Below are positions 16,081 through 63,157 of a stretch of DNA of 64,000 bases, in pieces (the stretch's first letter is position 1; each line of letters opens with the position of its first letter). A program made the translations under genes and the position numbers. Under the pieces are notes generated by a model. It made no database searches and had not been told where the DNA came from. It worked only from the letters and a program-made list of their open reading frames with translations. Source of the stretch: an uncultured Gammaproteobacteria bacterium (lineage in GTDB: Bacteria > Pseudomonadota > Gammaproteobacteria > Steroidobacterales > Steroidobacteraceae). The DNA lies in assembly GCA_963805965.1 (NCBI GenBank), contig CAWDVQ010000011.1, forward strand, positions 235,802-299,801, in the 5' to 3' direction.

Positions 16081-16108
16081 CCCGCGCACCGCACTTGCCA
16101 GGCCGGCT

Positions 16109-16882: not shown

Positions 16883-16918
16883 CGTGAATCTCCCGGTGGG
16901 TATTGACTTCGACGCACT

Positions 16919-16945
16919 GCAGGCCGGGCTTGCTGCCCGGCCTGC
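16919..16945. terminator. GC-rich hairpin downstream of 16982-17428 (terminator candidate)
   Basis: gcaggccgggc-ttgct-gcccggcctgc has a perfect 11-bp stem. No clear U-tract. Confidence 0.35.
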
Positions 16946-16981
16946 CTGAATCGCAAATCAGCGTCTGGCCATTGGTTGAGG

Positions 16982-26728: not shown

Positions 26729-26939
26729 GGGTGTTCCCGTAAGATCCTTTGGGCCGGCAGCGCCGCGCCGGACGGTGGCGCGCACACATTCTAGCTCCGC
26801 GCCAGCCGGCCGCGCTCGAGAGTGCGGCAACGCCGGCCCTCAAGGCCAATGCCTTTTATTGATGCGGCCGATGCATTTTCTCGGTCTGGAGTCAGCGCTC
26901 GATCTGTGGAAGTATCGCCTGCCACTCAACGGATGGGTC

Positions 26940-31249: not shown

Positions 31250-31322
31250 TCGCCGAGCTTGCACCTGGCATCACGCAGGTCGCAGTATCTGCGACTGAGC
31301 CCGAGCCTCGCAAAGGCAATCG

Positions 31323-39963: not shown

Positions 39964-39975
39964 TACCGGCGATCG

Positions 39976-40260
39976 ATGCTGCGTATCCGATGTCCATGGT
40001 GTGGTGAGCGCGACGAAACCGAATTTCGCTATCGCGGCGATGCCAGCCAGTCGCGCCCGGCGGGCGACGCCGGACTGGCGGCGTTCACGGCCTACGTCTA
40101 TGAGCGCAAAAATTCACGCGGCTGGCACCTGGAATGGTGGCTGCACGTCGGCGGCTGCCGCCGGCTGCTGAAACTGGTGCGTCACACACTGACGCACGAG
40201 ATCCGCCTCGTCGCCGCGGCGCACGAGCAGCCATCGCTGCCGCCGGCACCGGGCAGCTGA
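39976..40260 (+). CDS. soxD: sarcosine oxidase, delta subunit
   Basis: MLRIRCPWCGERDETEFRYRGDA...YVYERKNSRGWHLEWWLHVGGCRRLLKLVRHTLTHEI is canonical SoxD. Confidence 0.92.
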   Translation: MLRIRCPWCGERDETEFRYRGDASQSRPAGDAGLAAFTAYVYERKNSRGWHLEWWLHVGGCRRLLKLVRHTLTHEIRLVAAAHEQPSLPPAPGS

Positions 40261-43202: not shown

Positions 43203-43212
43203 AGTCCCGTCG

Positions 43213-43782
43213 ATGCGCGGCGCCGCCTTCGGGCTGCACCTGGAGACCAGCGCCAGCGATATCGTCGAGATCGCGGCGCTGCGCGATCGCGACAATGATG
43301 TTACGAGCATCGCGCTCGGCCGCGGCGTGCAGCTTCCGGCGCTCGGCCGCGCGCTGGTGGCGAGGGATCACCTGGCGCTGTGCGCGCGACCGGGGCGCTG
43401 GCTGATACTGGCCCCGCCGGTGCCTGCCGGGGCCAGCGCGGCAAGCTGGCAGGATGCGTGCAGCGGCGTTGCCGCGGTGCTTGACCAGTCCTCGGCCTTA
43501 AGCGCGCTGGAATTCTCAGGCCCGGAGGCCCGCGCGGTGCTCGCCAGGTCCTGCCGCATCGATCTTGATCCACAGGCATTTCCGGCGGGAACGGCCTGCG
43601 CCACAATCATCGCCCAGGTGTCGGTGATCGTCGTGGCGCTGGCATCGGGACTGCTGCTGCTGACGCCGGCGAGCACGGCGCGCCATTTGCACGACTGGCT
43701 GGTATCCGCTTCCAGGCAGCTGGGTTTCCAGCCGCCATCGCCGCTGAATGCCACGGCTGACGCCGGGGACGAACTGTCATGA
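43213..43782 (+). CDS. soxG: sarcosine oxidase, gamma subunit
   Basis: Position after soxA, size ~190 aa, and L.LCARPGRWLILAP...LDQSSALSALEFSGP.AR.VLA. ATGA overlap with the next gene. Confidence 0.75.
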   Translation: MRGAAFGLHLETSASDIVEIAALRDRDNDVTSIALGRGVQLPALGRALVARDHLALCARPGRWLILAPPVPAGASAASWQDACSGVAAVLDQSSALSALEFSGPEARAVLARSCRIDLDPQAFPAGTACATIIAQVSVIVVALASGLLLLTPASTARHLHDWLVSASRQLGFQPPSPLNATADAGDELS

Positions 43783-46307: not shown

Positions 46308-47372
46308 ATGAAAGCCCTGTTCGGCAATGTGCTGCTGCTGGCCCTCGTGCTCCACGGGACCGCGGTGGCCGACGATGCCAAGAAACTGCGCCTCATCACC
46401 TGGGCCGACTACGCGCCGGCCGAGGTGATCGCGCAGTTCAAGCAGGAGACCGGCATCCAGGTGGAAGTGACACTGTCGAACAACGAGGAAATCATCTCCA
46501 AGCTGCGCGCCACCGGCGGCGCCGGCTTCGACCTGGCGCAGCCGTCGCAGGACCGCATCACCGGAGTGCAGCGCGAATTCGGCATCTACAAGCCGATCGA
46601 TCTGAGCCAGATCAAGATCGAGCAATTCACCCCGGAGATACTCGAGGTCACGCGCAAGAACACCACGCTGGATGGCAAGCTATACGGACTGCCCTACCTG
46701 TGGGGTGCCGACGGGCTGGTGGTCAACACCAAATACGCGAAGCTCGCCGACTATCCGGACCTGTGCCGGCAGGACCTCAAGGGCAAGACCTCGCTGCGGC
46801 TGCGCCGGCCGGTGCTGATGGCGTTTGCGTTCGCGGCCGGCAAGGATCCATTTGCGTTGTATGGCGATCCCAAGGCCTATGCGGCGCTGATGGAGAACGT
46901 CGGCGCGACACTGTCGGCCTGCAAGTCGATCGTGCGGTTCTTCTACGACAACAAGGACCAGCTGCTCAACGGCATGCGCTCCGGTGAGATCGTTGCCGCG
47001 ATGATGTGGGATACCGGCGGCTGGACGCTCAATCGCCAGGATCCGAACATCCAGTTCATCGTGCCCAAATCCGGCGCCATGGGCTGGCTGGATACCTTCG
47101 CGCTGCCGGCTCGCGGCCGCAACGACGCCGCCGCTTACGCCTGGATCAATTTCACCATGCGGCCGGACGTGGCCGCGAAGATCACCAATGCGGTCGGCAA
47201 CTGGACCGCCGCGCGCGGCACGGAAAGCCTGGTCAACCAGAAATTCCGGGCGCAGTTCAACGCCAGTTTTCCGGGCGGTGCATTCAAGGACATTCACTGG
47301 TACCCCGCGATTCCGTCGGGTGTAGAGGAAACCGAAGGGCGCATCCTGGATCGCATCAAGGCCGCCAATTGA
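46308..47372 (+). CDS. PotD/PotF-family ABC substrate-binding protein
   Basis: Signal peptide MKALFGNVLLLALVLHGTAVA. LITWADY, YGLPYLWG and GWLDTFALP motifs. Confidence 0.8.
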   Translation: MKALFGNVLLLALVLHGTAVADDAKKLRLITWADYAPAEVIAQFKQETGIQVEVTLSNNEEIISKLRATGGAGFDLAQPSQDRITGVQREFGIYKPIDLSQIKIEQFTPEILEVTRKNTTLDGKLYGLPYLWGADGLVVNTKYAKLADYPDLCRQDLKGKTSLRLRRPVLMAFAFAAGKDPFALYGDPKAYAALMENVGATLSACKSIVRFFYDNKDQLLNGMRSGEIVAAMMWDTGGWTLNRQDPNIQFIVPKSGAMGWLDTFALPARGRNDAAAYAWINFTMRPDVAAKITNAVGNWTAARGTESLVNQKFRAQFNASFPGGAFKDIHWYPAIPSGVEETEGRILDRIKAAN

Positions 47373-47382
47373 GGATCGCCTG

Positions 47383-48492
47383 GTGAGCACCCCAGACCTG
47401 AGCGTGGAGCAGCTCGACAAGCGCTTCGCTGATCACGTGGCGGTCGACCGGCTGTCGTTCGCGGTCGAGCGTGGCAGTTTTTTCTCCATTCTCGGGCCGT
47501 CCGGCTGCGGCAAGACCACGCTGCTGCGGATGATTGCCGGATTCACGCTGCCCGACAGCGGCGACATCCGCATCGGCGGCCACAGCATGCGCGAGGTCGC
47601 TCCCAATCGCCGCCCGGTCAACATGGTGTTCCAGCATCTGGCGCTGTTTCCGATGATGTCGGTGGGAGAGAACGTCGGTTTCGGCCTGGCGCGGCGCGGG
47701 GTGAACAAGGCCGAGCGCACGCGCCGGGCCGCAGCCATGCTCGAGCGCGTGGGCCTGGCAGGGGCTGCCGGCAAACGGGTCGAGGAACTGTCGGGCGGAC
47801 AGCGCCAGCGGGTCGCAATCGCCCGCAGCCTGGTGCTCGAGCCGACACTGCTGCTGCTCGATGAGCCGCTGGGCGCACTCGATCTGAAGTTGCGCGAACA
47901 CATGAAAATCGAGCTCAAGCAGCTGCAGGCGGCCTTCGGCACCACGTTCGTCTACATCACGCACGACCAGTCCGAGGCGCTGGTGCTATCGGACCACGTG
48001 GCGGTGATGAACCGCGGCCGTTTCGAGCAGATCGGCACCCCGCAACAGCTCTACTACGAACCGGCCACGGCGTTCGTCGCCGGCTTCGTCGGTGCCAACA
48101 ATCGCATCCCCGGGCGCGCAGTGAGTGTCGACGGCGAAGTGGTGGAGCTGCACACGCCGCAGGGTTGGTCGGTGCGCGCCCGTCGCAGTGGAGCGGTTGC
48201 GGCGGGAGACTCAGTCGCGGCGTTCGTACGCCCGGAAGTCGCCAGCATCGAGCTCGACGCCGCGCAGCTGCCGCCGCAGATGCTGCGCTACGCGGGCGAA
48301 GTCCAGAGCCTGCTGTTCGATGGCGCCAACTCCGCGGTGCTGATCGTGGAACAGCAAAGCCGCTTCGAATTTCGCGTCGCGCTGCCACAGACCGGGCGGC
48401 TGGCGGACCTGAAAACCGGCGCGCAGGTATTCTTTGGCTTCGATCCGCAGCGCGCGATCTGCTTCACCGCCGCCGGCAGCACCCATGTCTGA
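47383..48492 (+). CDS. ABC transporter ATP-binding protein (PotA-like, with C-terminal TOBE-type region)
   Basis: Walker A GPSGCGKTT, LSGGQRQRVAIARSL, LLLLDEPLGALD. Confidence 0.9.
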   Translation: MSTPDLSVEQLDKRFADHVAVDRLSFAVERGSFFSILGPSGCGKTTLLRMIAGFTLPDSGDIRIGGHSMREVAPNRRPVNMVFQHLALFPMMSVGENVGFGLARRGVNKAERTRRAAAMLERVGLAGAAGKRVEELSGGQRQRVAIARSLVLEPTLLLLDEPLGALDLKLREHMKIELKQLQAAFGTTFVYITHDQSEALVLSDHVAVMNRGRFEQIGTPQQLYYEPATAFVAGFVGANNRIPGRAVSVDGEVVELHTPQGWSVRARRSGAVAAGDSVAAFVRPEVASIELDAAQLPPQMLRYAGEVQSLLFDGANSAVLIVEQQSRFEFRVALPQTGRLADLKTGAQVFFGFDPQRAICFTAAGSTHV

Positions 48493-49369
48493 ATCCGCCA
48501 GCAGCGCAGTGTGGCGGCGCCGGATGCTGCTGGCGGTGCTGCTTACGCCGGCGCTGCTGTGGCTGTTTGCGCTGATCATCCTGCCGCACGTGCAGCTGGC
48601 GCTGCTGTCGTTTCGCGAGCGCATCGCCCCGCGCACCTATGCGGCCAGCCTGATGCAGTACCGGACATTCTTTTCCGAGCCGCTGTACTGGGGGGTGTTC
48701 GTGCGTACCGCGATCATGTCGGCGCTCGCCACCGCACTGACGTTGCTGGTGGCGTTTCCGGTGGCGTGGATCATCGCCAAGGTCGCGCGCGGCCGCACCA
48801 GCTCGCTGCTGTTCGTGCTGTGCCTGATTCCGTTCTGGGTCAGCGAAACGGTGCGTGCGCTCGGCTGGCTGATCCTGCTGCGCCAATCCGGCGTGCTGCC
48901 GACGCTGCTGGTGCGCCTGGGCATCACGGCGGTGCCGGTGGAACTGCTCTACCACAATGCCACCATCCTGGTCGGACTGATCTATACCTCGCTGCTGTTC
49001 ATGGTGGTGCCGCTGGTGAGCAGCCTCGAGAGCCTGGACAACTCGCTGATCGAGGCGGCCTATAACCTTGGCGCCAAGGGACCTGCGATCCTGCGGCAGA
49101 TCGTCATTCCGCACGCCGCGCCCGGAATCACCTCCGGCTGCATCGTGGTGTTCATGCTCACGCTCGGCAATTACCTCACGCCCAATCTGCTGGGCGGCAA
49201 GAACTCGCAGTGGTTCACCGAGCTGATCTACACACAGTTCATCGTGCGCTTCAACTGGGAGCAGGGGGCGGCGTTCGGCTTTCTGCTGCTGGCGCTGTCC
49301 ACCGGCATGGTCGCACTCGGGCTGCGGGCCAGCGGCCAGCGCTTCGTCGACGTGATGCGGCGCGCATGA
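48485..49369 (+). CDS. ABC transporter permease (PotB-like)
   Basis: BPD fold with the EAAYNLGAKGPAILRQIVIPHAAPG EAA loop. 8-nt overlap with the ATPase stop. Confidence 0.85.
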   Translation: MSESASSAVWRRRMLLAVLLTPALLWLFALIILPHVQLALLSFRERIAPRTYAASLMQYRTFFSEPLYWGVFVRTAIMSALATALTLLVAFPVAWIIAKVARGRTSSLLFVLCLIPFWVSETVRALGWLILLRQSGVLPTLLVRLGITAVPVELLYHNATILVGLIYTSLLFMVVPLVSSLESLDNSLIEAAYNLGAKGPAILRQIVIPHAAPGITSGCIVVFMLTLGNYLTPNLLGGKNSQWFTELIYTQFIVRFNWEQGAAFGFLLLALSTGMVALGLRASGQRFVDVMRRA

Positions 49370-50256
49370 TCGCCTCGCTGCCACGTCCGGCCTGGCTGCG
49401 TGCCGCCACCGCGCTGTACCTGGGCGCGTTCCTGTTGTTCCTGTTCGTGCCGCTGACGGTAGTGGCGGTGTTCGCGTTCAACAATGCGCCCTATCCGGCG
49501 CCGCCGTGGCACGGCTTCACGCTCGACTGGTTCCTAGGTAACCCGGCCGCCGGCCGCGTCGGCCTGTTTCACGATGCGGAACTGCTCGGCAGCATCTGGA
49601 CCAGCGTCGTGGTCGCGAGCTGGGTGACCGCGCTGTCGGTGCTGGTGGGCACGGCGAATGCGTTCCTGATGGAGCGTTATCAATTCCCGGGCAAGCAGCT
49701 GCTGTCGGTGCTGATGCTGGTGCCGCTGGTGATCCCGGGTGTCATCCTCGGCATCTCCATCCTGGCGTTCTGCAGTCGACTGGCGGAACTTGCCGATAGC
49801 CTGTGGGGGCTCGATCTGGATTTCCTGCGGCCGGGCCTGGTGCTGGTGGTGCTCGGGCAGTTCTCGTTCGTGGCTACGATCGCCACGCTGATGATCAGCG
49901 CGCGGCTGAAGCGCTTTGATCGAACGCTTGAAGAGGCGGCGCTCAATCTGGGCGCCTCGCAGGCGGCGGTATTGCGCACCATCACGTTCCCCTACCTGCG
50001 TCCGGCGCTGATCGGTTCGGCGGCGATCTCATTTCTGATGTCGTTCGAGAACTTCAATACCACGCTGATGCTGGTGGGCGAGGACGCGCCGCTCACGGTG
50101 CTGATGTACGGCCGGATGCGCGAGGGCGCCAGCCCGGTGCTGAACGCGGTGAGCCTGTTTCTGATGCTGGCCTCGGCGTTGCTGGCGCTGTCTCTGATGC
50201 GCACCGGGCGCCGCGGCGCCGAACGGACCGCGGCCGCGGCCGCGGACGCGGCCTAG
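49366..50256 (+). CDS. ABC transporter permease (PotC-like)
   Basis: EAALNLGASQAAVLRTITFPYLRPA EAA loop. ATGA overlap with the upstream permease. Confidence 0.85.
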   Translation: MIASLPRPAWLRAATALYLGAFLLFLFVPLTVVAVFAFNNAPYPAPPWHGFTLDWFLGNPAAGRVGLFHDAELLGSIWTSVVVASWVTALSVLVGTANAFLMERYQFPGKQLLSVLMLVPLVIPGVILGISILAFCSRLAELADSLWGLDLDFLRPGLVLVVLGQFSFVATIATLMISARLKRFDRTLEEAALNLGASQAAVLRTITFPYLRPALIGSAAISFLMSFENFNTTLMLVGEDAPLTVLMYGRMREGASPVLNAVSLFLMLASALLALSLMRTGRRGAERTAAAAADAA

Positions 50257-52961: not shown

Positions 52962-53930
52962 CTAAGGCGGTGGCTCGGCGCGCCGGGTCAGCACTTCGTG
53001 ACCGGGCTGTTCAGGCTCCTCATCGGTAATCTGCGCCGGGAAGCCCTGGCCGAGTACCCGCACCTGGCAGGCATCCTCGAGACGCCGGATGATGTTGGGC
53101 GAAAACTCTCGCGGCCCGTAGCGTCGCTGTCCATCCCTGAAGATACCGAGCACCAGCGGCGAGATCTCGAGTGGCACATTCAGATCGCGCGCCAGCTGGT
53201 CGAACAGTCCCACGTCCTTGATCACCAGATCCATGGTGAAGTTGATATCGCGGCTGCCGTTCAGGATCACCTGGGATTCGGTTTCGTGCACGAACGAGTT
53301 GCCGGAGGAGATACGAATCGCCTCGTAGGCGGTGTTCATATCCAGGCCGGCCACCTTGCAGGTGGTCAGCGCCTCGGCCAGGGCGGCCAAATGCACCGTG
53401 CACAGATAATTGGTTACCACCTTGAGCTGCGATGCGGTGCCGAGCGCGCCGGTGTGCAGGATGTGCCGCCCCATCGTGGCCAGTACCGGCAGCACACGCT
53501 CGAAAGTCTCGCGCCGCCCGCCGGCAAAGATGGCGATGTTGCCGCTGGCAGCGCGATGACAACCACCCGACACCGGACAGTCCATCACCAGTGCGCCGCG
53601 CGCTTCGACCAGTGCGCCCAGCCGCAGCACCTCGGCGTGGTCCGTGGTGCTCATCTCGAGCCAGATCTGGCCGGCGCGCAGTGCGGACAGAAAGCCGTCC
53701 GCGCTTTCCACCACTTGCGCCGACGCGGCCGGCGAGGGCAGGCAGGTGATGATCAGGTCGACCGCCGCTGCCATCTCGCGCGGCGATGTCGCCGGGGTGG
53801 CGCCGCGCTGCTCGAACGACTGCTGCAGCTGCGGGTTGAGATCGCGTACCACCAGCGTATGGCCATTGCGCAGCAGCGTGCCGGCAAGCTTGCCCCCTAC
53901 GTTGCCCAGACCGATGAAGCCGATTTTCAT
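52962..53930 (-). CDS. NAD(P)-dependent 3-hydroxyisobutyrate-dehydrogenase-family oxidoreductase
   Basis: MKIGFIGLGNVGGKLAGTLL Rossmann start, DCPVSGG, and the 6-PGDH-like C-terminal domain. Confidence 0.85.
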   Translation of the reverse strand: MKIGFIGLGNVGGKLAGTLLRNGHTLVVRDLNPQLQQSFEQRGATPATSPREMAAAVDLIITCLPSPAASAQVVESADGFLSALRAGQIWLEMSTTDHAEVLRLGALVEARGALVMDCPVSGGCHRAASGNIAIFAGGRRETFERVLPVLATMGRHILHTGALGTASQLKVVTNYLCTVHLAALAEALTTCKVAGLDMNTAYEAIRISSGNSFVHETESQVILNGSRDINFTMDLVIKDVGLFDQLARDLNVPLEISPLVLGIFRDGQRRYGPREFSPNIIRRLEDACQVRVLGQGFPAQITDEEPEQPGHEVLTRRAEPPP

Positions 53931-54121
53931 AACATGCTTACTCTTTATGGATCAAAGGTTTACAACATCCCAGACAGCTGGCTGCCGGCGGGCGCAAGGC
54001 GCGCTGTGGGCGGCGATGTCGCGCCTAGACATGCGCCGGTCGCTATACCGGCATAGCGGCGCGGCTGCAGACTGTACGATGACAATGAGACTCCGTGCGT
54101 CCTTAAGTGGGGAGAACGTCG

Positions 54122-54820
54122 ATGGCCGATGGCCAGGATGAGGAATTCGATCTCGACAGCCTGGACGATCAGGAGCTGACCGAGCAGGTTCACGACGATC
54201 TCTACAACGGCCTGAAGGAAGAGGTCGAGACCGCGACCCGGATCTTCCTGGCGCGCGGCTGGTCGCCCGAGAAGGTGCTGAACGACGCGCTGGTCGAAGG
54301 CATGCGCATCGTTGGTATCGATTTCCGCGACGGCATCCTGTTCGTGCCCGAGGTGCTGCTGGCGGCAAACTCGATGAAAGGCGGCATGGAGATCCTGCGG
54401 CCGCTGCTGGCGGAGACCGGCGTCGAGCCGATCGGCAAGATCGTGATCGGCACCGTCAAGGGCGACATTCACGACATCGGCAAGAACCTGGTATCGATGA
54501 TGCTCGAGGGCGCCGGCTTCGAGGTCATCGATCTTGGCATCAACAATCCGGTGGAAAAGTACCTGGCTGCGATCGAGCAGCACCAGCCCGACATCCTCGG
54601 CCTGTCGGCGCTGCTGACCACCACCATGCCCTACATGAAAGTGGTGATCGATACCCTCAAGGAAAAGGGCATCCGCGACAAGTACATCGTACTGGTGGGC
54701 GGGGCACCGCTGAACGAGGAGTTCGGCAAGGCTATCGGCGCCGACGCTTACTGCCGCGATGCCGCGATCGCGGTCGAGACCGCAAAATCGATGGTGGCTG
54801 CGCGCCGGGCCGCGCGCTGA
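54122..54820 (+). CDS. corrinoid (cobalamin-binding) methyl-carrier protein, MtxC-type
   Basis: B12-binding helical cap followed by a Rossmann domain with DxHxxG (GDIHDIGKNL), SxL (LSALLTTT) and GG (LVGGAP) motifs. ggggag RBS 8 nt upstream. Confidence 0.9.
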   Translation: MADGQDEEFDLDSLDDQELTEQVHDDLYNGLKEEVETATRIFLARGWSPEKVLNDALVEGMRIVGIDFRDGILFVPEVLLAANSMKGGMEILRPLLAETGVEPIGKIVIGTVKGDIHDIGKNLVSMMLEGAGFEVIDLGINNPVEKYLAAIEQHQPDILGLSALLTTTMPYMKVVIDTLKEKGIRDKYIVLVGGAPLNEEFGKAIGADAYCRDAAIAVETAKSMVAARRAAR

Positions 54821-54834
54821 AGCAGCGCAGCCCC

Positions 54835-55455
54835 ATGCAGTGTAGCGACCGGGTACTGGTGATCGCGTGCGGCGCGCTGGCGCGCGAGATCGCGGCGCTC
54901 AAGCGCGCCAGCGGCTGGTCGGCGCTCGATGTGACCTGCCTGCCGCCGGAGCTCCACAACCGGCCGGAAAAGATCCCCGCGGCGGTCAGCGCTGCGATTC
55001 GCGAGGCGCGGGCGCGCTATCGACGAATCTTCGTGGCCTACGCCGACTGCGGTACCGGCGGCGCGCTCGACCGGGTGCTGGCCGAAGAGGGCGTCGAGCG
55101 GCTGCCGGGTGCGCACTGCTATGAACTGTTTGCCACCGCGGCGAGGTTTGCTGCGCTCGCGGAAACCGAGCCCGGCACGTTCTATCTGACCGATTTCCTG
55201 GTGCGGCATTTCGAGCGGCTGGTGATCGGCGGCCTCGGGATCGACCGGCATCCGCAGCTCGCGGGAGAGTATTTCCGCCATTACCGTCGCGTGGTCTACC
55301 TGGCGCAGGTCGCCGATGCACAGCTGGCCGATCAGGCACGCGCCATCGCCGCACGGCTCGGGCTTGCCTACGAGCAGCACGCCAGCGGCTATGGCGAGCT
55401 GGCGACCAGCCTGGCACGCGTGGTACGCGCTCCGGGCCCGCAGCCGGCGGCCTGA
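54835..55455 (+). CDS. DUF1638-family protein
   Basis: VLVIACGALAREI....DVTCLPPELHNRPEKIP...RIFVAYADCGTGGALD is the characteristic DUF1638 pattern seen next to corrinoid methyltransferase genes. Confidence 0.75.
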   Translation: MQCSDRVLVIACGALAREIAALKRASGWSALDVTCLPPELHNRPEKIPAAVSAAIREARARYRRIFVAYADCGTGGALDRVLAEEGVERLPGAHCYELFATAARFAALAETEPGTFYLTDFLVRHFERLVIGGLGIDRHPQLAGEYFRHYRRVVYLAQVADAQLADQARAIAARLGLAYEQHASGYGELATSLARVVRAPGPQPAA

Positions 55456-55473
55456 AAAAAAGGGCACCGCGGC

Positions 55474-55818
55474 GTGGCGCAGCTCATCATCATTTCGTGG
55501 CGCGACATCCCGGCCCAGGTGATCGTCAAGCGTGGGCGCGAGACGGCGAAGGTGCAGCTGTCGCAGCGCTTTCAGGAGGCGGTCGACCGCGCTGCGATGC
55601 GCGCCGGCAAGGGCAGCTCCGACGCTTATCTTGCCGACTGGAAGCGCAGCCCGCCGCGCTCCTGCGCTGATGATCTCAAGGCGGTGGCCGACGCCGAGGC
55701 TGCGGTGCTCGAGGCGCGCTACAGCGATGAGGATCTGGAGCGCATGATCCGCGCCAAGGGCATCGACGATCGCCTGACCGGCGTGGGCGCCGCGGCCGAT
55801 AGCCCCGGGGCGCGCTGA
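55474..55818 (+). CDS. small virulence-factor-like domain protein (function unknown)
   Basis: AQLIIISWRDIPAQVIVKRGRETAKVQLSQRFQEAVDRAAMRAG resembles the small protein family commonly encoded upstream of MetV/MetF-type genes. GTG start. Confidence 0.6.
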   Translation: MAQLIIISWRDIPAQVIVKRGRETAKVQLSQRFQEAVDRAAMRAGKGSSDAYLADWKRSPPRSCADDLKAVADAEAAVLEARYSDEDLERMIRAKGIDDRLTGVGAAADSPGAR

Positions 55819-56291
55819 TGTATCGCGCGCGCCTCTGGTCGGTGCGCCATGCACGCGGCCTGGATCGATTCTATGGCGTGTTCGAGCACCTGTTGGTGCG
55901 CCTGGCGCCGTTGTTCGCGGCGATCGGCTATCAGCGCCTGGAGCGCCCGGTGGCCGCGATCGAGCGCGGTGTCAAAGGCCTGCTGTTCGACTGCAAGATG
56001 TGCGGCCAGTGCGTGCTGAGTTCCACCGGCATGTCGTGCCCGATGAACTGCCCGAAGAATCTGCGCAACGGCCCCTGCGGCGGGGTGCGCGCCGATGGCT
56101 ACTGCGAGGTCGATGCCCGGATGCGCTGCGTGTGGCTGCTGGCATTCGCCGGCGCCGAGCGCATCCCCGGCGGTATCGACCGAATACGCGCGATCCAGGC
56201 GCCGGTCGACCGCCGCCTCGAGGGGCATTCATCGTGGCTGCGCCTGGTGCGTGATCGCACCGGATCGACGGCGCGCGCGAGTGCACCATGA
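55818..56291 (+). CDS. MetV-like subunit (methylenetetrahydrofolate reductase C-terminal-domain protein, Cys-rich)
   Basis: CKMCGQCVLSSTGMSCPMNCPKNLRNGPCGG Cys motif. TGATG overlap upstream and ATGA overlap downstream. Confidence 0.8.
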   Translation: MYRARLWSVRHARGLDRFYGVFEHLLVRLAPLFAAIGYQRLERPVAAIERGVKGLLFDCKMCGQCVLSSTGMSCPMNCPKNLRNGPCGGVRADGYCEVDARMRCVWLLAFAGAERIPGGIDRIRAIQAPVDRRLEGHSSWLRLVRDRTGSTARASAP

Positions 56292-57304
56292 GATTCGAGG
56301 ATGAGCCGGTTCCGGGCTATCCGCTGCCGATCCTGCCGGGCCACGTGTCCCCAGGCCGCTTCGAGCGCGTGCTGCGCGCCGGCGCGTTTGCGGTAACGAC
56401 CGAACTGGCGCCGCCGGATTCCGCCGACCCGCAGGAGGTGTACCAGCGCGCGCGCGTGCTCGATGGCTATGTCGATGCGATCAACGCCACCGACGGCTCC
56501 GGGGCCAACTGTCACATGTCGAGCCTGGCGGTGTGCGCACTGCTGACGCGCGTCGGCTATGCACCGGTGATGCAGATCTCCTGCCGCGACCGCAATCGGA
56601 TTGCCATCCAGGGCGACATCCTCGGCGGTGCCGCCATGGGGGTGTGCAACATGCTGTGCCTGACCGGCGATGGCGTGCAGGTGGGCGACCATCCGCAGGC
56701 CAGGCCGGTGTTCGATCTGGACTCGATATCGCTGCTGGAACTCGGCTGCACACTGCGCGATCAGCATTGCTTCCAGAGCGGTCGCAAGCTCAGCTTCTCG
56801 CCGCGGGTATTGTTCGGCGCCGGCGAGAACCCGATGGTGCCGCCGCTCGAACACCGTGCGCTGCGGCTAGCGAAGAAGGTGGCCGCCGGGGCGCAGTTCA
56901 TCCAGACGCAGTACGTGTACGATCTGCCGCGACTGCGCGCGTTCATGCGCGGGGTCGAGGACCTGGGGCTGCTCGACCGCGTGTTCCTGCTGATCGGGGT
57001 AGGCCCGATCAGGAGCGCCAAGGCGGCCGAGTGGATGCGCCGCCACGTGCCCGGGGTGCACATCCCCGATGCCATCGTCGATCGCCTGGCGGGCGCGCAG
57101 GATGCGGCGCGCGAGGGGCGCAACATCTGCATCGAACTGATCCAGGAGCTCCGCAGCATGCGCGGAATCCACGGCGTGCACGTGATGGCGTACCGCCAGG
57201 AAGAGGCGGTGGCCGAGATCATCACCGGCTCCGGCGTGCTGGCTGGACGAACGCCATGGCATCCGGGACGCGACCAGAATTCAGCCGACAGGAAAGCATC
57301 ATGA
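56288..57304 (+). CDS. metF: methylenetetrahydrofolate reductase (MetF-type catalytic subunit)
   Basis: FAVTTELAPP, YVDAINATDGSGA, QISCRDRNR, CLTGD and FIQTQYVYD are MTHFR TIM-barrel motifs. Confidence 0.85.
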   Translation: MRFEDEPVPGYPLPILPGHVSPGRFERVLRAGAFAVTTELAPPDSADPQEVYQRARVLDGYVDAINATDGSGANCHMSSLAVCALLTRVGYAPVMQISCRDRNRIAIQGDILGGAAMGVCNMLCLTGDGVQVGDHPQARPVFDLDSISLLELGCTLRDQHCFQSGRKLSFSPRVLFGAGENPMVPPLEHRALRLAKKVAAGAQFIQTQYVYDLPRLRAFMRGVEDLGLLDRVFLLIGVGPIRSAKAAEWMRRHVPGVHIPDAIVDRLAGAQDAAREGRNICIELIQELRSMRGIHGVHVMAYRQEEAVAEIITGSGVLAGRTPWHPGRDQNSADRKAS

Positions 57305-58224
57305 CCGATACGGTTCTCAGTTCCGCGACCAGGGAGGTGGTGATCGGATTCGATCGCCCGTTCGTCATCATCGGCGAGCGCATCAATCCGACTGGACGCA
57401 AGATCCTCGCAGCCGAAATGCTGGCCGGGGATTTCAGCCGCGTGGAGACCGACGCCCGCGCCCAGGTGGAAGCCGGCGCGCACATGCTCGACGTCAACGC
57501 CGGCATCCCGCTGGCGGATGAACCGGCGATTCTTGCGCGCGCCATCCAGCTGGTGCAGTCGATCACCGACGTGCCGCTGTCGATCGACTCCTCGATCGTC
57601 GCCGCGCTGGAAGCGGGACTCAAGGTCTACAAAGGCAAGGCGCTGGTGAATTCGGTCACCGGCGAGGAGGAGCGGCTGGAGAGCGTGCTGCCGCTGATCA
57701 AGAAATATGGCGCTGCAGTGGTCGCGATCTCCAACGATGAGACCGGCATCTCCGAGGATCCGGACGTGCGCTTCGAGGTTGCCAAGCGCATCGTGCATCG
57801 TGCGCTCGATCACGGCATTGCCGCTTGCGACATCGTGGTCGATCCGCTGGTAATGCCGATTGGCGCCATCAATCGCGCCGCGGTGCAGGTGATGCACCTG
57901 CTGCATCGGCTGAAGACCGAGCTAAAGGTCAACACCACCTGCGGCGCCTCGAACATCAGCTTCGGGCTGCCGCGCCGTAACGGTATCAACGCGGCGTTCC
58001 TGACCATGGCGATCGGCTCGGGCATGACCTCCGCGATCACCAACCCGCTGCATCCGGAAGTGGTGGAGGCGGTGCTCGGTGCTGACGTGATGATGGGCCA
58101 TGATCCGGACTGCACGCGCTGGATCAGGAAATTTCGCGAACCGCCACCGGCCGGCGCCGACGGTGAGGCTGGTCGCGGCCGTCGCGAGGGCGGTCATCGC
58201 CGTCGCCCGACGCCGGCCACCTAG
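57301..58224 (+). CDS. methyltetrahydrofolate:corrinoid methyltransferase (pterin-binding domain)
   Basis: FVIIGERINPTGRK, MLDVNAG, LSIDSS, ALVNSVTGE, VVDPLVMPIG and CGASNISFGLP are the pterin-binding (MetH/AcsE/MtrH-like) pattern. ATGA overlap with metF. Confidence 0.88.
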   Translation: MTDTVLSSATREVVIGFDRPFVIIGERINPTGRKILAAEMLAGDFSRVETDARAQVEAGAHMLDVNAGIPLADEPAILARAIQLVQSITDVPLSIDSSIVAALEAGLKVYKGKALVNSVTGEEERLESVLPLIKKYGAAVVAISNDETGISEDPDVRFEVAKRIVHRALDHGIAACDIVVDPLVMPIGAINRAAVQVMHLLHRLKTELKVNTTCGASNISFGLPRRNGINAAFLTMAIGSGMTSAITNPLHPEVVEAVLGADVMMGHDPDCTRWIRKFREPPPAGADGEAGRGRREGGHRRRPTPAT

Positions 58225-58232
58225 GAATCTGC

Positions 58233-60248
58233 ATGGCCGCGTCCGATGCGCTGGTCGTGTTCACGCCGTCGGGCAAACGCGGCCGCTTCGAGCTCGGCAC
58301 GCCGATACTATCGGCCGCGCGCAGCCTCGGAGTAGACATTGATTCCGTGTGTGGCGGGCGGGCGATGTGCACGCGCTGCCAGGTGCTGATCGCCGAGGGC
58401 GAGTTCGCCAAGCACAACGTGCGCTCCTCGGCCGGCAATCTGTCGCCGATGTCGGCCGCGGAACAAAGGCTCGCCGATCGCAAGCTGCTCGGCGCCGGAC
58501 GCCGGCTGTCCTGCCAGGCGCGGCTGCAGGGCGATGTCGTGGTGGACGTGCCGGCGAGCAGCCAGGTGCACCGCCAGGTGGTGCGCAAGGCCGCGGAAGC
58601 CTACGACATCGAGCTCTATCCGCTCATCACGCTGCACTACGTCGAGGTCGCCGAGCCGGACATGCACGATCCATCCGGCGACTTGAAGCGACTGACCGAC
58701 GCGCTGTCGCGCGAGTGGCAGCTGGGCGCACTGCAATGCGATCTGAAGGTGCTGCAGGGGCTGCAGGCTGCACTCAGGAGCGGCAAATGGAAGGTCACGG
58801 TCGCGGTCCATGACCGCTCGCGCATCGTGTCGGTGTGGCCGGGCCTGCACGAGAAGGTATACGGGCTGGCCGTGGACGTCGGTTCCACCACCATCGCCGC
58901 CCACCTGTGCGATCTGACCAGCGGCGACATCGTGGCGGCCGCCGGCATCATGAATCCGCAGATCCGCTTCGGCGAGGATCTGATGAGCCGCGTGTCGTAC
59001 GCGATGATGAACCCGGGCGGCGCCGCGCAGATGACCGCAGCGGTCAGGGGCGCGCTGAGCGAACTGGCGGCCGACGTGGCACGCGCTGCGGGCATCACGC
59101 CGGATGCGATCCTGGAGATGACCCTGGTGGGCAACCCGATCATGCACCACCTGGTCCTGGGCCTGGACCCGGTGGAACTGGGCGGCGCGCCGTTCGCATT
59201 GGCGGTGGACAGCGCGGTTACCGTCACCGCGGCGGAGCTCGACATCGCCGTGAACCCCAACGCCCGCATCTACGTGCTGCCGTGCATCGCCGGCCATGTC
59301 GGCGCCGACACCGCCGGCATGATCCTGGCGGAGCGGCCGGATCTGGCCGAGCCTCTCACGCTGCTGGTGGATGTCGGCACCAACGCGGAGATCGTGCTCG
59401 GCAACCGCGCGCGCCTGGTGGCCTGCTCCAGCCCGACCGGCCCGGCATTCGAGGGCGCGCAAATCAGTTGCGGCCAGCGCGCCGCCCCGGGTGCGATCGA
59501 GCGCGTGCGCATCGATCGCGCTACGCTCGAGCCGCGCTATCGGGTGATCGGCAGCGAGCTGTGGTCGGACGATCCGGGCTTCGCCCAGGCGGTCGGCGCC
59601 ACCGGCGTCACCGGCGTGTGCGGCTCGGGCATCATCGAGCTGATCGCCGAACTCTACCTGGCCGGTGTCATCAACCAGGACGGCGTCATCGACGGCTCGC
59701 TGGCGGCCGTGAGCCCGCGGGTGGTGGCCAACGGCAGGACATTTGCCTACCAGCTCGCGTCCGGCGAGCGCCCGCTATCGATCACGCAAAACGACGTGCG
59801 CGCGATCCAGCTGGCGAAGGCAGCGTTGTACGCCGGTATCCGGCTACTGATGGAGCGGCTGGGAGTGGAACAGGTCGATCGGATCCGGCTCGCCGGTGCG
59901 TTCGGCAGCCACATCGACGTCAAGTACGCCATGGTGCTCGGCATGATTCCCGACTGCGAGCTGTCGCAGGTCGCCTCGGCCGGCAATGCGGCCGGTACCG
60001 GCGCACGCATCGCGCTGCTCGACTCGCGCTCGCGCGCGACTATCGAGGCCATCGTGGGCCAGGTGGAGAAGATCGAGACCGCACTGGAGCCGCGCTTTCA
60101 GACGCATTTCGTCGAGGCGATGGCCCTTCCGCACAAGACCGCACCCTACCCGCACCTGCGCTCGGCGGTGCAGCTGCCGGCGCCCAAAGCGGTGCTGCAG
60201 AGCGATGGCCGCGAGCGGCGCAAGCGGCGCGTGATTCATCAAGGGTAG
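58233..60248 (+). CDS. RACE-type reductive activator of corrinoid enzymes (N-terminal 2Fe-2S ferredoxin + ASKHA ATPase)
   Basis: CGGRAMCTRCQV...LSCQA plant-type ferredoxin Cys pattern. Then GLAVDVGSTTIAAHL and LLVDVGTNAEIV ASKHA phosphate-binding motifs. 671 aa. Confidence 0.88.
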   Translation: MAASDALVVFTPSGKRGRFELGTPILSAARSLGVDIDSVCGGRAMCTRCQVLIAEGEFAKHNVRSSAGNLSPMSAAEQRLADRKLLGAGRRLSCQARLQGDVVVDVPASSQVHRQVVRKAAEAYDIELYPLITLHYVEVAEPDMHDPSGDLKRLTDALSREWQLGALQCDLKVLQGLQAALRSGKWKVTVAVHDRSRIVSVWPGLHEKVYGLAVDVGSTTIAAHLCDLTSGDIVAAAGIMNPQIRFGEDLMSRVSYAMMNPGGAAQMTAAVRGALSELAADVARAAGITPDAILEMTLVGNPIMHHLVLGLDPVELGGAPFALAVDSAVTVTAAELDIAVNPNARIYVLPCIAGHVGADTAGMILAERPDLAEPLTLLVDVGTNAEIVLGNRARLVACSSPTGPAFEGAQISCGQRAAPGAIERVRIDRATLEPRYRVIGSELWSDDPGFAQAVGATGVTGVCGSGIIELIAELYLAGVINQDGVIDGSLAAVSPRVVANGRTFAYQLASGERPLSITQNDVRAIQLAKAALYAGIRLLMERLGVEQVDRIRLAGAFGSHIDVKYAMVLGMIPDCELSQVASAGNAAGTGARIALLDSRSRATIEAIVGQVEKIETALEPRFQTHFVEAMALPHKTAPYPHLRSAVQLPAPKAVLQSDGRERRKRRVIHQG

Positions 60249-60269
60249 CGCGCAGCGGGGCGCGCGCAG

Positions 60270-61838
60270 TCAGACGTTCGAGTCTGGAAACGAGGCCTTG
60301 CGGCGCTGCATGAAATCGAGCAGCGCCTCGTCGATCGCGGCGTCCAGTGGCGGCGCCTGGTACTCGGCGAGCTGTTTTTTCCACAGCGCATTGGCGCGCT
60401 TGGCCATGTCGCTCGCCCCCTCGGCTTCCCACTGCTCGTAGCTGTTGTTGTCGGCCAGCGCCGAGCGGTAGAACGCGGTCTCGAAGTTGGCCTGGGTATG
60501 TGCACAGCCGAGGAAATGCTTGCCGGGGCCGACCTCGCGGATAGCATCCATCGCCTGGCCGTTTTCGGACATGTCCACGCCCGAGAGGAATGTCTGCATC
60601 ATGCCCGCCTGATCGACGTCCATGACGAATTTCTCGTACCCCATGGCCAGGCCGCCTTCGAGCCAGCCGGCGACATGCAGCACGAAATTGACGCCCGCAA
60701 GACAGGTCGGCAGCAACGTGTTAGCCGATTCAAACGCCGCCTGCGCATCCGGAATCTTGGATGCGCACAGGCTGCCGCCGGAACGAAACGGCACCCCGAG
60801 GCGGCGCGCCAGTGCCGCCATGACATACAGCACCAGTGCCGGCTCGGGGGTGCCGAACGTGGGCGCGCCCGACTGCATCGAGATCGAAGAGGCAAAGCTG
60901 CCGAAGATCACCGGCGCTCCGGGGTTCACCAGCTGCGTCAGTGCCATGCCAGCCAGCGCTTCGGCCAGCGTCTGGGCTGCCGTTCCCGCCACCGTCACCG
61001 GCGACATCGCGCCGGCAAGGATGAAGGGCGTCACGATCGTGGCCTGGTTGGCACGCGCGTAGACCTTGAGAGCCCCGAGCATGGTCGAGTCGAACGTCAT
61101 CGGCGAGTTGGCATTGATGAGGCTGACCAGCACGGTTCGGGGGCGCCCGGTCGCCGGGTCGATGAAGTCCGGCCCGAACAGGATCTTCGCCATCTCGACC
61201 GTATCGGCGGCGCGTTCGGGGTGCGTGACCGAGCCCATGAACGGCTTGTCGCTGTATTTGATGTGGCTGTAGACCATATCGAAATGGCGCTTGTTGACCG
61301 GCAGGTCGACCGGCTCGCAGATGGTGCCGCCCGAGTGATGCAGCGAGGGCGCCATGTAGGCGAGCTTGACGAAGTTCCTGAAATCCTCGATACGCGCGTA
61401 GCGACGCCCCTCATCCAGGTTGCGGATGAACGGCGAGCCGTAGGCCGGGGCAAACACGCTGTGCTTGCCGCCGATCGGGACGTTGTGTGCGGGATTGCGC
61501 GCATATTGAACGAATTCGCGCGGCGCGCTGTCGCGGATCAGGGAGCGGCACAGGCCGCGCGGGAAGTGCACGCGCTCGCCCTTGACCTCGGCCCCGGCCG
61601 CCTTCCACAGCGTGAGCGACTCGGGGTCGTCACGAAAGTCGATGCCAATCTCTTCCAGGATGGTATCGGCGTTGCGCTCGATGGTGACCAGGGCCTGCTC
61701 GTCGAGGACTTCGTAGTAAGGCAGGGCGCGTGTGATGTACGGAATAGTGACCGCCGAGCGTGCCGCTCGTGCGGCGCGCTTGGCCTCGCGTCCGCCGCCG
61801 CGATTGCGGCGCGCCGATAGCGCTTGCTGCTCATCCAT
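60270..61838 (-). CDS. MttB-superfamily (non-pyrrolysine) methyltransferase, paralog 3
   Basis: Uninterrupted ORF. VTPFILAGAMSPVTVAGTA, GSFASSISMQSGAPTFGTPE, LHVAGWLEGGL and GPGKHFLGCAHT. GGAGG RBS upstream of MDEQQ. Convergent with the RACE gene (21-nt gap). Confidence 0.88.
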   Translation of the reverse strand: MDEQQALSARRNRGGGREAKRAARAARSAVTIPYITRALPYYEVLDEQALVTIERNADTILEEIGIDFRDDPESLTLWKAAGAEVKGERVHFPRGLCRSLIRDSAPREFVQYARNPAHNVPIGGKHSVFAPAYGSPFIRNLDEGRRYARIEDFRNFVKLAYMAPSLHHSGGTICEPVDLPVNKRHFDMVYSHIKYSDKPFMGSVTHPERAADTVEMAKILFGPDFIDPATGRPRTVLVSLINANSPMTFDSTMLGALKVYARANQATIVTPFILAGAMSPVTVAGTAAQTLAEALAGMALTQLVNPGAPVIFGSFASSISMQSGAPTFGTPEPALVLYVMAALARRLGVPFRSGGSLCASKIPDAQAAFESANTLLPTCLAGVNFVLHVAGWLEGGLAMGYEKFVMDVDQAGMMQTFLSGVDMSENGQAMDAIREVGPGKHFLGCAHTQANFETAFYRSALADNNSYEQWEAEGASDMAKRANALWKKQLAEYQAPPLDAAIDEALLDFMQRRKASFPDSNV

Positions 61839-62179
61839 GGGGGTTGGACCTCCTGCCGCAATATACAAGTATGGTCAGGCCCACGGTGCGCGGCTGACCA
61901 ATTTGCGGCACCGATTTGTTTCGGCGCGACATTCCAGCGCCGCTGGCCCCGCAAATCGCCGCCAGCGTTGCGCCCCCGAGACAATGCACGCCGGATTGCA
62001 TTCCACTGCTTCCACGGTCCGTGTAGGACAAACACTGACAGAAAATTTTTCATGGTCCCACAGCATCATAGTCCGGGACTGGTGCAGCCAAGCGGCGCCA
62101 GTGGTTACAAGTAGCGTAGCGGTTCAATTTCCTTACCGTCGCGCGGCTATTTGCCCGCGCCTATTTGCTGGAGATTTGA

Positions 62180-63157
62180 ATGAACGACATGGCAAATTGG
62201 ATGGTTGGTGGCTCGGCGGCGATGCAGGCCATCCGCGATCTGGTGGACAAGGTAGCGCCCACCGACGCCACGGTTCTGATCTCCGGCGAGAGCGGCTCCG
62301 GCAAGGAGTTGGTCGCACAGGCGATCCACGCGCGCAGCGCGCGCGGTTCAGGACCCTTTCTCGGCATCAACTGCGGCGCTCTGCCGCCGACCCTGATCGA
62401 ATCGGAGCTGTTTGGTTTTGAGCGCGGCAGCTTCACCGGCGCCGGGCGCAGTCACGCCGGCATGGTGGAGCGCGCCTCCGGCGGAACGCTGTTCCTCGAC
62501 GAGGTCACTGAGATGAGCGCCGACATGCAGACGCGGCTGCTCCGGTTCCTGGAAACGCGATGCTTTTTCCGCGTCGGCGGCACGCAGGAGATCAGGACCG
62601 ACGTGCGCGTGGTCGCGGCGACCAATCGCTCGCCGGTACAGGCGGTGCGGGATGGCAGCCTGCGCGAGGACCTGCTGTATCGGCTGGCGGTGTTTCCGAT
62701 CGCGCTGGCACCGCTGCGCGAGCGCGGCGAGGATGTGGTGCTGCTGGCGGACCACTTCCTGAACGAGATCAATGCGCGCAACGACACTGCGAAAGTGTTC
62801 AGCAGCGGCGCCAGGCAGACATTGCGTGAATATCGCTGGCCGGGCAACGTGCGGGAGCTGAAGAATGCGGTCGAGCGCGCCTACATTCTGTGTGAGCACG
62901 AGCTGAAGCTGCAGCCGATGAATCTGCATGCGGTCGCCGGCGAGGCGGTCGTGGCAAACGAGGATACCGACGGCATCTGCGTGCCGATCGGATCATCGCT
63001 GGCGGAGGCGGAACAGTGGCTGATCGAGGCAACGCTGGCGCACTGGGCGGGCAATAAGAATCGCGCTGCCAAGACGCTGGGATGCAGCCTGAAAACGCTG
63101 TATAACAAACTGGCGATTTATGGACAACAACAGCAGGGCATGGAAACCCACGCCTGA
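62180..63157 (+). CDS. sigma54-dependent transcriptional activator lacking any N-terminal sensor/receiver domain (PspF-like architecture)
   Basis: The AAA+ domain starts at about residue 8 (GGSAAMQAIRDLV...VLISGESGSGKE). GAFTGA-type loop ERGSFTGA, RVVAATN, YRLAVFPI, and a C-terminal Fis-type HTH (NKNRAAKTLGCSLKTLYNKL). 325 aa. Confidence 0.88.
   Translation: MNDMANWMVGGSAAMQAIRDLVDKVAPTDATVLISGESGSGKELVAQAIHARSARGSGPFLGINCGALPPTLIESELFGFERGSFTGAGRSHAGMVERASGGTLFLDEVTEMSADMQTRLLRFLETRCFFRVGGTQEIRTDVRVVAATNRSPVQAVRDGSLREDLLYRLAVFPIALAPLRERGEDVVLLADHFLNEINARNDTAKVFSSGARQTLREYRWPGNVRELKNAVERAYILCEHELKLQPMNLHAVAGEAVVANEDTDGICVPIGSSLAEAEQWLIEATLAHWAGNKNRAAKTLGCSLKTLYNKLAIYGQQQQGMETHA

Follow-up and report, generated by a model that had tools for sequence, protein, structure and literature searches.

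A predicted cobalamin-dependent quaternary-amine demethylation operon of the MtgBCD type, with three MttB paralogues, in a Steroidobacteraceae genome

A 64,000-nucleotide stretch of DNA from an uncultured gammaproteobacterium of the Steroidobacteraceae (assembly GCA_963805965.1, contig CAWDVQ010000011.1, positions 235,802 to 299,801 of the forward strand; hereafter the window) carries what is very likely the core of a cobalamin-dependent, O2-independent quaternary-amine demethylation system of the MtgBCD type, as judged from sequence and by analogy with characterized relatives. Seven co-directional genes fill positions 54122–60248 of the plus strand in the order corrinoid protein, DUF1638 protein, PF13769 protein, MetV-like subunit, MetF, pterin-binding methyltransferase and RACo-type activator, and the minus-strand gene for an MttB-family methyltransferase, mttB1 (60270–61838), converges on them, according to the listing of open reading frames (ORFs) and codon-position GC. 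The gaps at successive junctions of the operon are 14, 18, −1, −4, −4 and 8 nt, with overlaps that read TGATG at 55816–55820 and ATGA at both 56288–56291 and 57301–57304, and a spacer of 21 nt separates the convergent RACo and mttB1 genes. The initial annotation of this DNA had described seven packed genes with these overlaps, and every coordinate and junction it gave is exact; the MttB-family gene that it placed 21 nt beyond the operon is likewise confirmed (Pfam MTTB, PF06253, 774 bits over the full-length model). The outer boundaries, 54122 and 61838, agree with the gene calls of a 1.87-Mb metagenome contig (L002) that is 92–99% identical to the window region and encodes a 232-residue corrinoid protein and a 522-residue MttB protein.

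Domains were assigned using Pfam gathering scores, NCBIfam curated or equivalog cut-offs and PDB sequence matches, and folds were compared using Foldseek. All eight families, those of the seven operon genes and of MttB1, exceed their Pfam gathering scores. The profile-HMM check proposed in the initial annotation is thus positive for the corrinoid, pterin, RACo and remaining domains, and its naming of DxHxxG corrinoid, DUF1638, virulence-factor-like, MetV, MetF, pterin-binding and RACE-type genes has Pfam support throughout. That annotation also proposed comparing the neighbourhood across genomes. We scanned one genome per species with the PF13769 profile, obtaining at least 597 confirmed loci, and mapped the window proteins onto the best 80 of these plus loci L001 and L002. 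The full order MtgC–DUF1638–PF13769–MetV–MetF–MtgD–RACo recurs in 52 of the 82 loci, from Gamma-, Beta- and Alphaproteobacteria, and is therefore not a product of chance. Nine loci have the order MtgC–DUF1638–PF13769–MtgD–RACo, without MetV and MetF, and 21 are truncated or deviate in other ways.

The pathway that we propose has five steps. First, a substrate-specific MttB-family enzyme would transfer a single N-methyl group to the corrinoid protein MtgC in its Co(I) form, with MttB1 most likely taking glycine betaine and two further paralogues, MttB2 and MttB3, taking other, probably carboxylate-bearing, methylammonium compounds. Second, MtgD would hand the methyl group to tetrahydrofolate (THF). 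Third, MetV/MetF would oxidize methyl-THF (CH3-THF) to methylene-THF (CH2-THF), which could then enter C1 oxidation or assimilation. Fourth, RACo would use ATP to re-reduce MtgC that has been accidentally oxidized to the Co(II) state, a need expected to arise frequently in an aerobe, and DUF1638, probably together with PF13769, would assist this reactivation. Finally, the resulting dimethylglycine (DMG) would be demethylated by a neighbouring dimethylglycine dehydrogenase (DMGDH)-like enzyme and the sarcosine oxidase SoxBDAG. We infer the first four steps from homology, the first two having genetic support in a related marine system. A B12-dependent, O2-independent first N-demethylation that feeds CH3-THF into CH2-THF had been suggested in the initial annotation; this suggestion is supported and very probably right, as all of the required parts are conserved as a unit.

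Components of the predicted methyl-transfer module

The predicted methyl carrier is an MtgC-type corrinoid (cobalamin-binding) protein (54122–54820, plus strand, with a longer ORF from 54107) that contains Pfam B12-binding_2 and B12-binding domains and whose DxHxxG motif reads GDIHDIGKN in translation. Its top NCBIfam matches are the MtgC models NF047996 and NF047995 (212 and 171 bits), the PDB entry closest to it is 1Y80 (193 bits), annotated as a ‘predicted cobalamin binding protein’, and the next is 7XCN_M, the corrinoid protein of a trimethylamine (TMA) methyltransferase. Related proteins at 72–99% identity occur in at least 75 of the related loci. The gene at 57301–58224 (plus strand) encodes a putative pterin-binding methylcobalamin:THF methyltransferase of the MtgD, MtgA or AcsE-like type (Pfam Pterin_bind, 105 bits), which scores above the cut-off of the curated NCBIfam model for methyl-THF:corrinoid methyltransferases (PRK07535; 361 vs 259 bits) and has as its best PDB matches 2YCK and 2YCI, both methyl-THF:corrinoid/Fe-S protein methyltransferases (156 bits). 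There is a single corrinoid protein, a single MtgD and a single activator in the window, and the corrinoid protein would be the methyl carrier common to the MttB paralogues.

The activator (58233–60248, plus strand) has the architecture of a RACo-type ATP-dependent reductive activator, with an N-terminal 2Fe-2S domain followed by an ASKHA ATPase. All four RACo Pfam domains (Fer2, RACo_linker, Raco_middle and RACo_C_ter) exceed their cut-offs, RACo_C_ter at 304 bits, and the protein matches PDB 3ZYY over its full length (residues 7–635, 327 bits), an entry titled ‘iron-sulfur cluster binding protein’ that we take to be RACo of Carboxydothermus hydrogenoformans. It reaches neither the AcsV nor the RamA equivalog cut-off, scoring 98 vs 500 bits for RamA (TIGR04270).

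Two consecutive genes encode a predicted two-subunit methylene-THF reductase. The MetV-like, Cys-rich subunit (55818–56291, plus strand; Pfam PF12225, the MTHFR C-terminal family, 87.5 bits) has cysteines at positions 59, 62, 65, 74, 78, 87, 96 and 104 that are kept in 99–100% of 68 orthologues, and a PDB sequence search with it gave no match. The metV stop codon overlaps the start of metF in an ATGA, and metF (56288–57304, plus strand; Pfam MTHFR, 113 bits) overlaps the start of mtgD in the same way. The metF product, a paralogue predicted to oxidize CH3-THF to CH2-THF, does not reach the cut-off of either NAD(P)H-type equivalog, TIGR00676 or TIGR00677. An overlapping metV/metF arrangement has been described for MetFV-type enzymes, whose MetV subunit carries [4Fe4S] clusters in acetogens (PMC8515935). 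The pair in the window resembles MetFV of Clostridium ljungdahlii (PMC8515935) in having metV directly upstream of and overlapping metF, a Cys-rich MetV (eight invariant cysteines here, two predicted [4Fe4S] clusters there) and a MetF without NAD(P)H-type equivalog scores. It differs in that MetV is shorter (157 residues vs ~23.5 kDa) and the host is not an acetogen, and also in the direction of catalysis, which we infer to be oxidative.

MttB paralogues and their probable substrates

One new element in our analysis is the presence of three MttB paralogues around the single corrinoid module of the window, where the initial annotation listed one. MttB1, a probable glycine betaine:corrinoid methyltransferase (MtgB-like), belongs to the non-pyrrolysine branch of the family: its ORF is uninterrupted, with no in-frame stop and no amber (pyrrolysine) codon. 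MttB2 is encoded at 31323–32861 on the plus strand (Pfam MTTB, 597 bits) and MttB3 at 24178–25827 on the minus strand (650 bits). Pairwise identities are 38% for MttB1 and MttB2, 39% for MttB1 and MttB3, and 47% for MttB2 and MttB3. MttB1 is 70% identical to the Sinorhizobium meliloti protein of PDB 4YYC (784 bits) and 48% identical to MtgB of Desulfitobacterium hafniense (434 bits), to which MttB2 and MttB3 are 36–37% identical.

In D. hafniense MtgB, residues Y97, R312, H348 and F356 hold glycine betaine, as established by mutagenesis and a ligand-bound structure, and R312 has been tied by the MtgB authors to acidic quaternary amines (PMC13080624). MttB1 keeps Y97, R312 and H348, three of these four residues, and has glycine in place of F356; the corresponding positions read H, R, H, G in MttB2 and S, R, H, G in MttB3. 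The S. meliloti protein shows the MttB1 pattern, and in 4YYC as in each of the three paralogues a tryptophan precedes the glycine at position 356 by four residues. Glycine betaine is the likely substrate of MttB1. Because R312 is kept and Y97 is lost in MttB2 and MttB3, their substrates are probably carboxylate-bearing methylammonium compounds other than glycine betaine.

MttB1 could instead act on another methylated amine, such as proline betaine, carnitine, gamma-butyrobetaine, a choline derivative or TMA, with glycine betaine being handled by MttB2, MttB3 or some other route. We consider this the less likely assignment, although the chance that it is correct is appreciable: MttB-family specificity varies widely among paralogues of one genome, the four-residue motif of MtgB is a minimum set that does not on its own fix specificity (PMC13080624), and the glycine–tryptophan pattern is common to MttB1, its paralogues and 4YYC. 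For TMA in particular, the missing pyrrolysine codon and a score well below the cut-off of the TMA methyltransferase equivalog (TIGR02369; 265 vs 525 bits) argue against such an activity. More generally, MttB1 is the paralogue nearest to D. hafniense MtgB and the only one of the three to keep Y97, and the genes around it include those for transport of glycine betaine and for the demethylation of DMG and sarcosine. Moreover, among the three paralogues it is MttB1 whose orthologues stay near the operon in different classes: in 31 loci an orthologue, at 68–97% identity, is encoded no more than 10 kb from the operon, and in 22 loci it follows RACo in convergent orientation.

The other two paralogues have neighbours of their own. 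The mttB2 gene adjoins genes for an iron-dependent alcohol dehydrogenase (Fe-ADH), an aldehyde dehydrogenase and a GMC oxidoreductase, and mttB3 lies upstream of a second DMGDH-like gene (21655–24066, minus strand; DAO, FAO_M, GCV_T and GCV_T_C domains) and beside a LysR regulator gene (25760–26830). By its gene content, the layout of the window is that of one corrinoid hub with several putative substrate-specific methyltransferases.

Related systems, alternative readings and accessory proteins

The initial annotation took this set of partners to have been characterized in strict anaerobes, a premise that has been overtaken by work in an aerobe. Mausz et al. (2025, PNAS; PMC12478193) used proteomics and mtgC and mtgD knockouts to show that MtgB, MtgC and MtgD demethylate glycine betaine in aerobic Ruegeria pomeroyi. 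The premise of novelty is thus out of date, and the mechanism inferred for the window is the published one. In R. pomeroyi, loss of either mtgC or mtgD abolishes growth on glycine betaine, the mtgC mutant having also been shown not to consume it, and growth on N-osmolytes induces two PF06253 proteins, RamA, DUF1638 and MetF2, of which MetF2, encoded beside mtgD, is the most induced protein (PMC12478193). The same study found up to seven MttB paralogues per one MtgC, high transcription of a homologous system in the surface ocean, and frequent co-location or operonic linkage of mtg genes with later demethylation steps in Alpha-, Gamma- and Deltaproteobacteria and in S. meliloti (PMC12478193).

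On its sequence, the region is a terrestrial, fully operonic member of this widespread MtgBCD-type system. It shares with R. pomeroyi and Phaeobacter inhibens the MttB-family MtgB paralogues, a stand-alone corrinoid protein, a pterin-binding MtgD, a MetF paralogue beside mtgD, a ferredoxin-bearing RamA/RACo-like activator and DUF1638; the architecture of the activator is that of RamA-like PGA1_c15200 (ferredoxin plus DUF4445) of P. inhibens. A context of betaine transport and DMG/sarcosine demethylation, and several MttB proteins per corrinoid protein, are further points of likeness to R. pomeroyi. By contrast, the R. pomeroyi genes are scattered (SPO2160, 2162, 1863, 1862, 2041, 2108 and 2134), whereas seven lie in one coupled operon here with the mtgB-like gene convergent, and the host is a terrestrial gammaproteobacterium instead of a marine bacterium. 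The window also lacks the MtgE of MtgBCD(E) systems: the ORFs scanned in the window included no homocysteine S-methyltransferase.

Two other groups of systems offer instructive comparisons. The MtgABC or MtgB systems of anaerobes, including D. hafniense MtgB and MtpB, MtcB and MtyB of Eubacterium limosum with their RamA-type activators, likewise pass methyl groups from substrate to a Co(I) corrinoid and on to THF, with ATP-dependent activation. In the window, however, DUF1638 and PF13769 accompany the module, the activator has the RACo architecture with its N-terminal 2Fe-2S domain and scores far below the RamA cut-off, F356 is replaced in MttB1, and MtgC scores below the cut-offs of both models built for the anaerobe proteins; moreover, the anaerobes send methyl groups to acetogenesis or methanogenesis, whereas oxidation is their predicted fate here. 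In its chloromethane (cmu) pathway (CmuA, CmuB, MetF2, FolD and PurU), the aerobe Methylobacterium extorquens CM4 also combines B12- and THF-dependent methyl transfer with a dedicated oxidative MetF paralogue (PMC3621897), but the substrate there is chloromethane and the first methyltransferase is fused to a corrinoid domain (CmuA) and is not of the MttB family. Roseobacter MtgC has been placed closest to the corrinoid domain of CmuA (PMC12478193).

Homologous parts have a second role in roseobacters, which raises the possibility that the operon serves, chiefly or in addition, as a split cobalamin-dependent methionine synthase. In that case, MtgD would run in reverse, from CH3-THF to the corrinoid protein, MtgE would be encoded elsewhere, and RACo and DUF1638 would replace the reactivation domain of MetH. 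In P. inhibens, a split methionine synthase needs both a ferredoxin–DUF4445 protein (the RACo-type PGA1_c15200) and a DUF1638 protein, and mutants of either behave as B12-reactivation mutants; the DUF1638 mutants are methionine auxotrophs co-fit with the split synthase, and the two proteins co-occur across Alphaproteobacteria (Price et al. 2018; PMC5764234). In addition, the R. pomeroyi mtgC and mtgD mutants are methionine auxotrophs, which points to a dual function (PMC12478193). Against such a role stand the lack of a homocysteine S-methyltransferase gene noted above and the findings that genomes with both metH and mtgBCD exist and that mtgE is mostly not near mtgBCD (PMC12478193). Context also speaks against it, and we favour a catabolic function because the operon includes MetVF and is flanked by MttB, betaine-transport, DMGDH-like and Sox genes. 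A main or added role in methionine synthesis thus seems to us possible but the less probable reading, and it can hold together with demethylation.

Several observations weigh against our assignment of the region to quaternary-amine demethylation and deserve to be set out together. First, MtgC scores below both NCBIfam MtgC cut-offs (212 vs 370 and 171 vs 310 bits), and the link of the window proteins to the R. pomeroyi Mtg proteins is indirect, by way of identical domain architecture and Rhizobiaceae loci. Second, MttB1 lacks the cation–π residue F356 of D. hafniense MtgB, and the motif to which this residue belongs is, as discussed above, a minimum set. Third, the MetFV reductases characterized so far come from anaerobes and run in the reductive direction, drawing on reduced ferredoxin or NADH (PMC8515935). 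Finally, regulatory signals are sparse: we found no sigma-70-like promoters in 53800–62300, no sigma-54 site upstream of mtgC or mttB1, and no cobalamin riboswitch in the window, in which the sole Rfam match is one tRNA.

Sigma-54 consensus matches occur across the window at the chance rate (109 vs 90 ± 9 expected). The sole exact match to the −24/−12 consensus, TGGCACTGCGATTGC, lies at 27716–27730 (plus strand) inside the Fe-ADH ORF, with the aldehyde dehydrogenase gene ~390 nt downstream. A sigma-54 activator gene (62180–63157, plus strand) is located beside mttB1, and at the same position in L002; its product has AAA+ and helix–turn–helix domains only, without a sensor or receiver domain.

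A third possibility, that the module works only under anoxia (for example, during denitrification) in a facultative host whose O2-dependent neighbours provide an alternative route, appears improbable, even though carriers of the operon include denitrifier lineages (the Azoarcus sp. KH32C plasmid, Thauera and Aromatoleum) and Co(I) corrinoids are oxygen-sensitive. The homologous system is needed for growth on glycine betaine in aerobic R. pomeroyi and is active at the transcript level in surface waters (PMC12478193), no GbcAB Rieske or BHMT-type first-step enzyme that could serve as the alternative was seen in the window, and the adjacently encoded sarcosine oxidase step needs O2.

The operon also encodes two small accessory proteins. 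DUF1638 (54835–55455, plus strand; Pfam PF07796, 105 bits) may assist in reactivating the corrinoid protein. Among 76 orthologues, C12, C35, C72, C95, H41 and H94 are invariant or near-invariant, the four cysteines being invariant. In an AlphaFold2 (AF2) model computed, as for PF13769, on database homologues (pLDDT 86.5), C12, C35 and C72 are positioned at or just past the C-terminal ends of three predicted β-strands. The C-terminal ends of strands are the usual position of the cofactor site in α/β folds, and a metal or Fe-S site in DUF1638 is a reasonable idea on the basis of this model. A Foldseek search of the PDB returned only generic two-lobed α/β matches (best E 4e-3, TM 0.31), and a PDB sequence search gave no match.

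The small PF13769 (‘virulence factor’, Virulence_fact) protein (55474–55818, plus strand; 94 bits) belongs to a family of 967 clusters at 50% identity. Its gene is immediately preceded by that for DUF1638 in 80 of 81 loci and, because it stays beside DUF1638 in the nine loci without MetV and MetF, the protein appears to belong with the corrinoid/reactivation module and not with the reductase. W9, P13, L29, F33, D38, A41, Y52 and G96 are invariant, and the AF2 model (pLDDT 91.6) consists of a three-stranded sheet followed by helices, for which we found no fold match in the PDB (best E 0.49, TM <0.3) and no PDB sequence match. The initial annotation held that the roles of DUF1638 and the small protein in such operons were undescribed. 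For DUF1638 this holds only in part, given the P. inhibens mutants (PMC5764234). It stands for PF13769, which had no mention in the literature we searched and, like the MetV-like subunit, goes unmentioned in Mausz et al. (PMC12478193).

Gene fusions were considered as a clue to PF13769 and given little weight. DUF1638 is fused to PF13769 in P0136 and P0218, and PF13769 to Fer2 and RACo_linker in P0171. The P0136 fusion is probably an artefact, as the neighbours on its contig (L084; ENA ERZ25039482 contig_59905) are all fragmented by frameshifts, the mtg operon genes there being split into many short ORFs in the manner typical of long-read indel errors. The P0171 fusion comes from a 977-bp contig and was not relied on.

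More speculatively, DUF1638 and PF13769 could work with RACo as dedicated, hitherto unrecognized components of a machinery that reactivates corrinoids and tolerates oxygen, with DUF1638 acting as a Cys4 metal or Fe-S protein and PF13769 as a small adaptor whose fold is new to the PDB. In operons with MetVF, MetV could also route electrons from CH3-THF oxidation into this module, in which case the pathway would prime its own cofactor. We offer this scheme tentatively and think it rather unlikely to hold.

Neighbouring genes and distribution

By its predicted gene content, the window is a catabolic island for methylated amines, namely betaine, dimethylglycine and sarcosine, and its host is a probable aerobe or facultative anaerobe. 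The predicted second demethylation step is assigned to a DMGDH-like, THF-linked demethylase (43779–46193, plus strand), which has the same DAO, FAO_M, GCV_T and GCV_T_C domains as the copy downstream of MttB3. The predicted third step is assigned to a heterotetrameric sarcosine oxidase encoded by soxB-soxD-soxA-soxG (38656–43782, plus strand), comprising a SoxB-like DAO protein (38656–39963), a SoxD-like 94-residue ORF with a CPWCG motif (39976–40260), SoxA (about 40134–43202; Fer2_4, SO_alpha_A3 and GCV_T) and a SoxG-like ORF (43171–43782) with which the set is, by sequence, complete. Because the soxD-like ORF overlaps the longest SoxA ORF, soxA probably starts near 40257 and not at 40134.

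On the minus strand, 34799–38539 encodes a putative OpuA/ProU-type betaine ABC transporter, made up of an OpuAC binding protein (37628–38539), two BPD_transp_1 permeases (36471–37631 and 34799–35638) and an ATPase (ABC_tran) in the ORF at 35539–37083; a second ABC transporter occupies 46308–50256. A BetA-like GMC oxidoreductase (29645–31264), a BetB-like aldehyde dehydrogenase and an FA_desaturase-type protein (33713–34708) are also encoded. The sarcosine oxidase, GMC oxidase and desaturase-type neighbours mentioned in the initial annotation are thus all present.

A probable integrated mobile element at about 6400–17000 (GC 56–63% vs ~67% elsewhere) has a tRNA-Arg(TCG) gene (6490–6564), a phage-type integrase gene directly after it (6600–7715, minus strand) and a gene for a NikA-like mobilization protein (8463–9053). 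The same low-GC element contains a 140-residue ORF (14501–14923, plus strand) with a match (E 1.2e-8) to the VHL beta domain (PF01847), a family known chiefly from eukaryotes. A molybdenum cofactor cluster on the minus strand (2255–6423) encodes MoaE, a MobA-like plus ThiS/MoaD-like ORF (2718–3827), MoaC, MoaA and MoeA, and an MsrPQ-like pair (Oxidored_molyb plus cytochrome b561) is located at 17568–19156. The window is not a known plasmid; its top plasmid match is pAZKH of Azoarcus sp. KH32C, at 77% identity over half of the region. On pAZKH, the same operon is found beside ProVW, ETF, a DMGDH-like gene, PurU and FolC.

The closest PF13769 homologues, at up to 93% identity, come from metagenome-assembled genomes (MAGs) of Steroidobacteraceae and Steroidobacterales. 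In addition to Steroidobacteraceae, the best 80 loci include other Gammaproteobacteria (Halomonas, Nitrincola, Ca. Thioglobus and Pseudohongiella), Betaproteobacteria (Rhodoferax, Comamonadaceae, Thauera and Aromatoleum), Alphaproteobacteria (Rhizobiaceae, Dongia and Kiloniellales) and one Gaiellaceae MAG. Three Rhizobiaceae loci (L070, L074 and L080) have an S. meliloti-type arrangement, with MtgC 74% and MttB1 68–69% identical to the window proteins. Two loci fall outside the Proteobacteria by their bin labels. An operon at 71–86% protein identity (L006, CALQLF020000018.1) is binned as the actinobacterium ‘Candidatus Planktophila lacus’, which is probably a binning error. The Gaiellaceae locus (L081, CAVZVL010000016.1) has the order MtgC–DUF1638–PF13769–MtgD–RACo–MttB at 56–81% identity, suggesting either horizontal transfer beyond the Proteobacteria or mis-binning.

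B12-dependent demethylation was long linked to anaerobes, and its presence in oxygen-respiring Proteobacteria was a notable discovery of 2025, of which the window appears to provide a further instance. The operon form found here is self-contained, and a single hub for three MttB paralogues, each with its own neighbouring genes, makes it convenient for heterologous reconstitution and for assigning substrates. The distribution of the operon indicates a system that is far from confined to the ocean, being common also in Steroidobacteraceae of soil and peat, freshwater Burkholderiales, Rhodocyclales and Rhizobiaceae, in at least 597 species-level genomes. This breadth bears on cobalamin demand and on the turnover of quaternary amines in soils.

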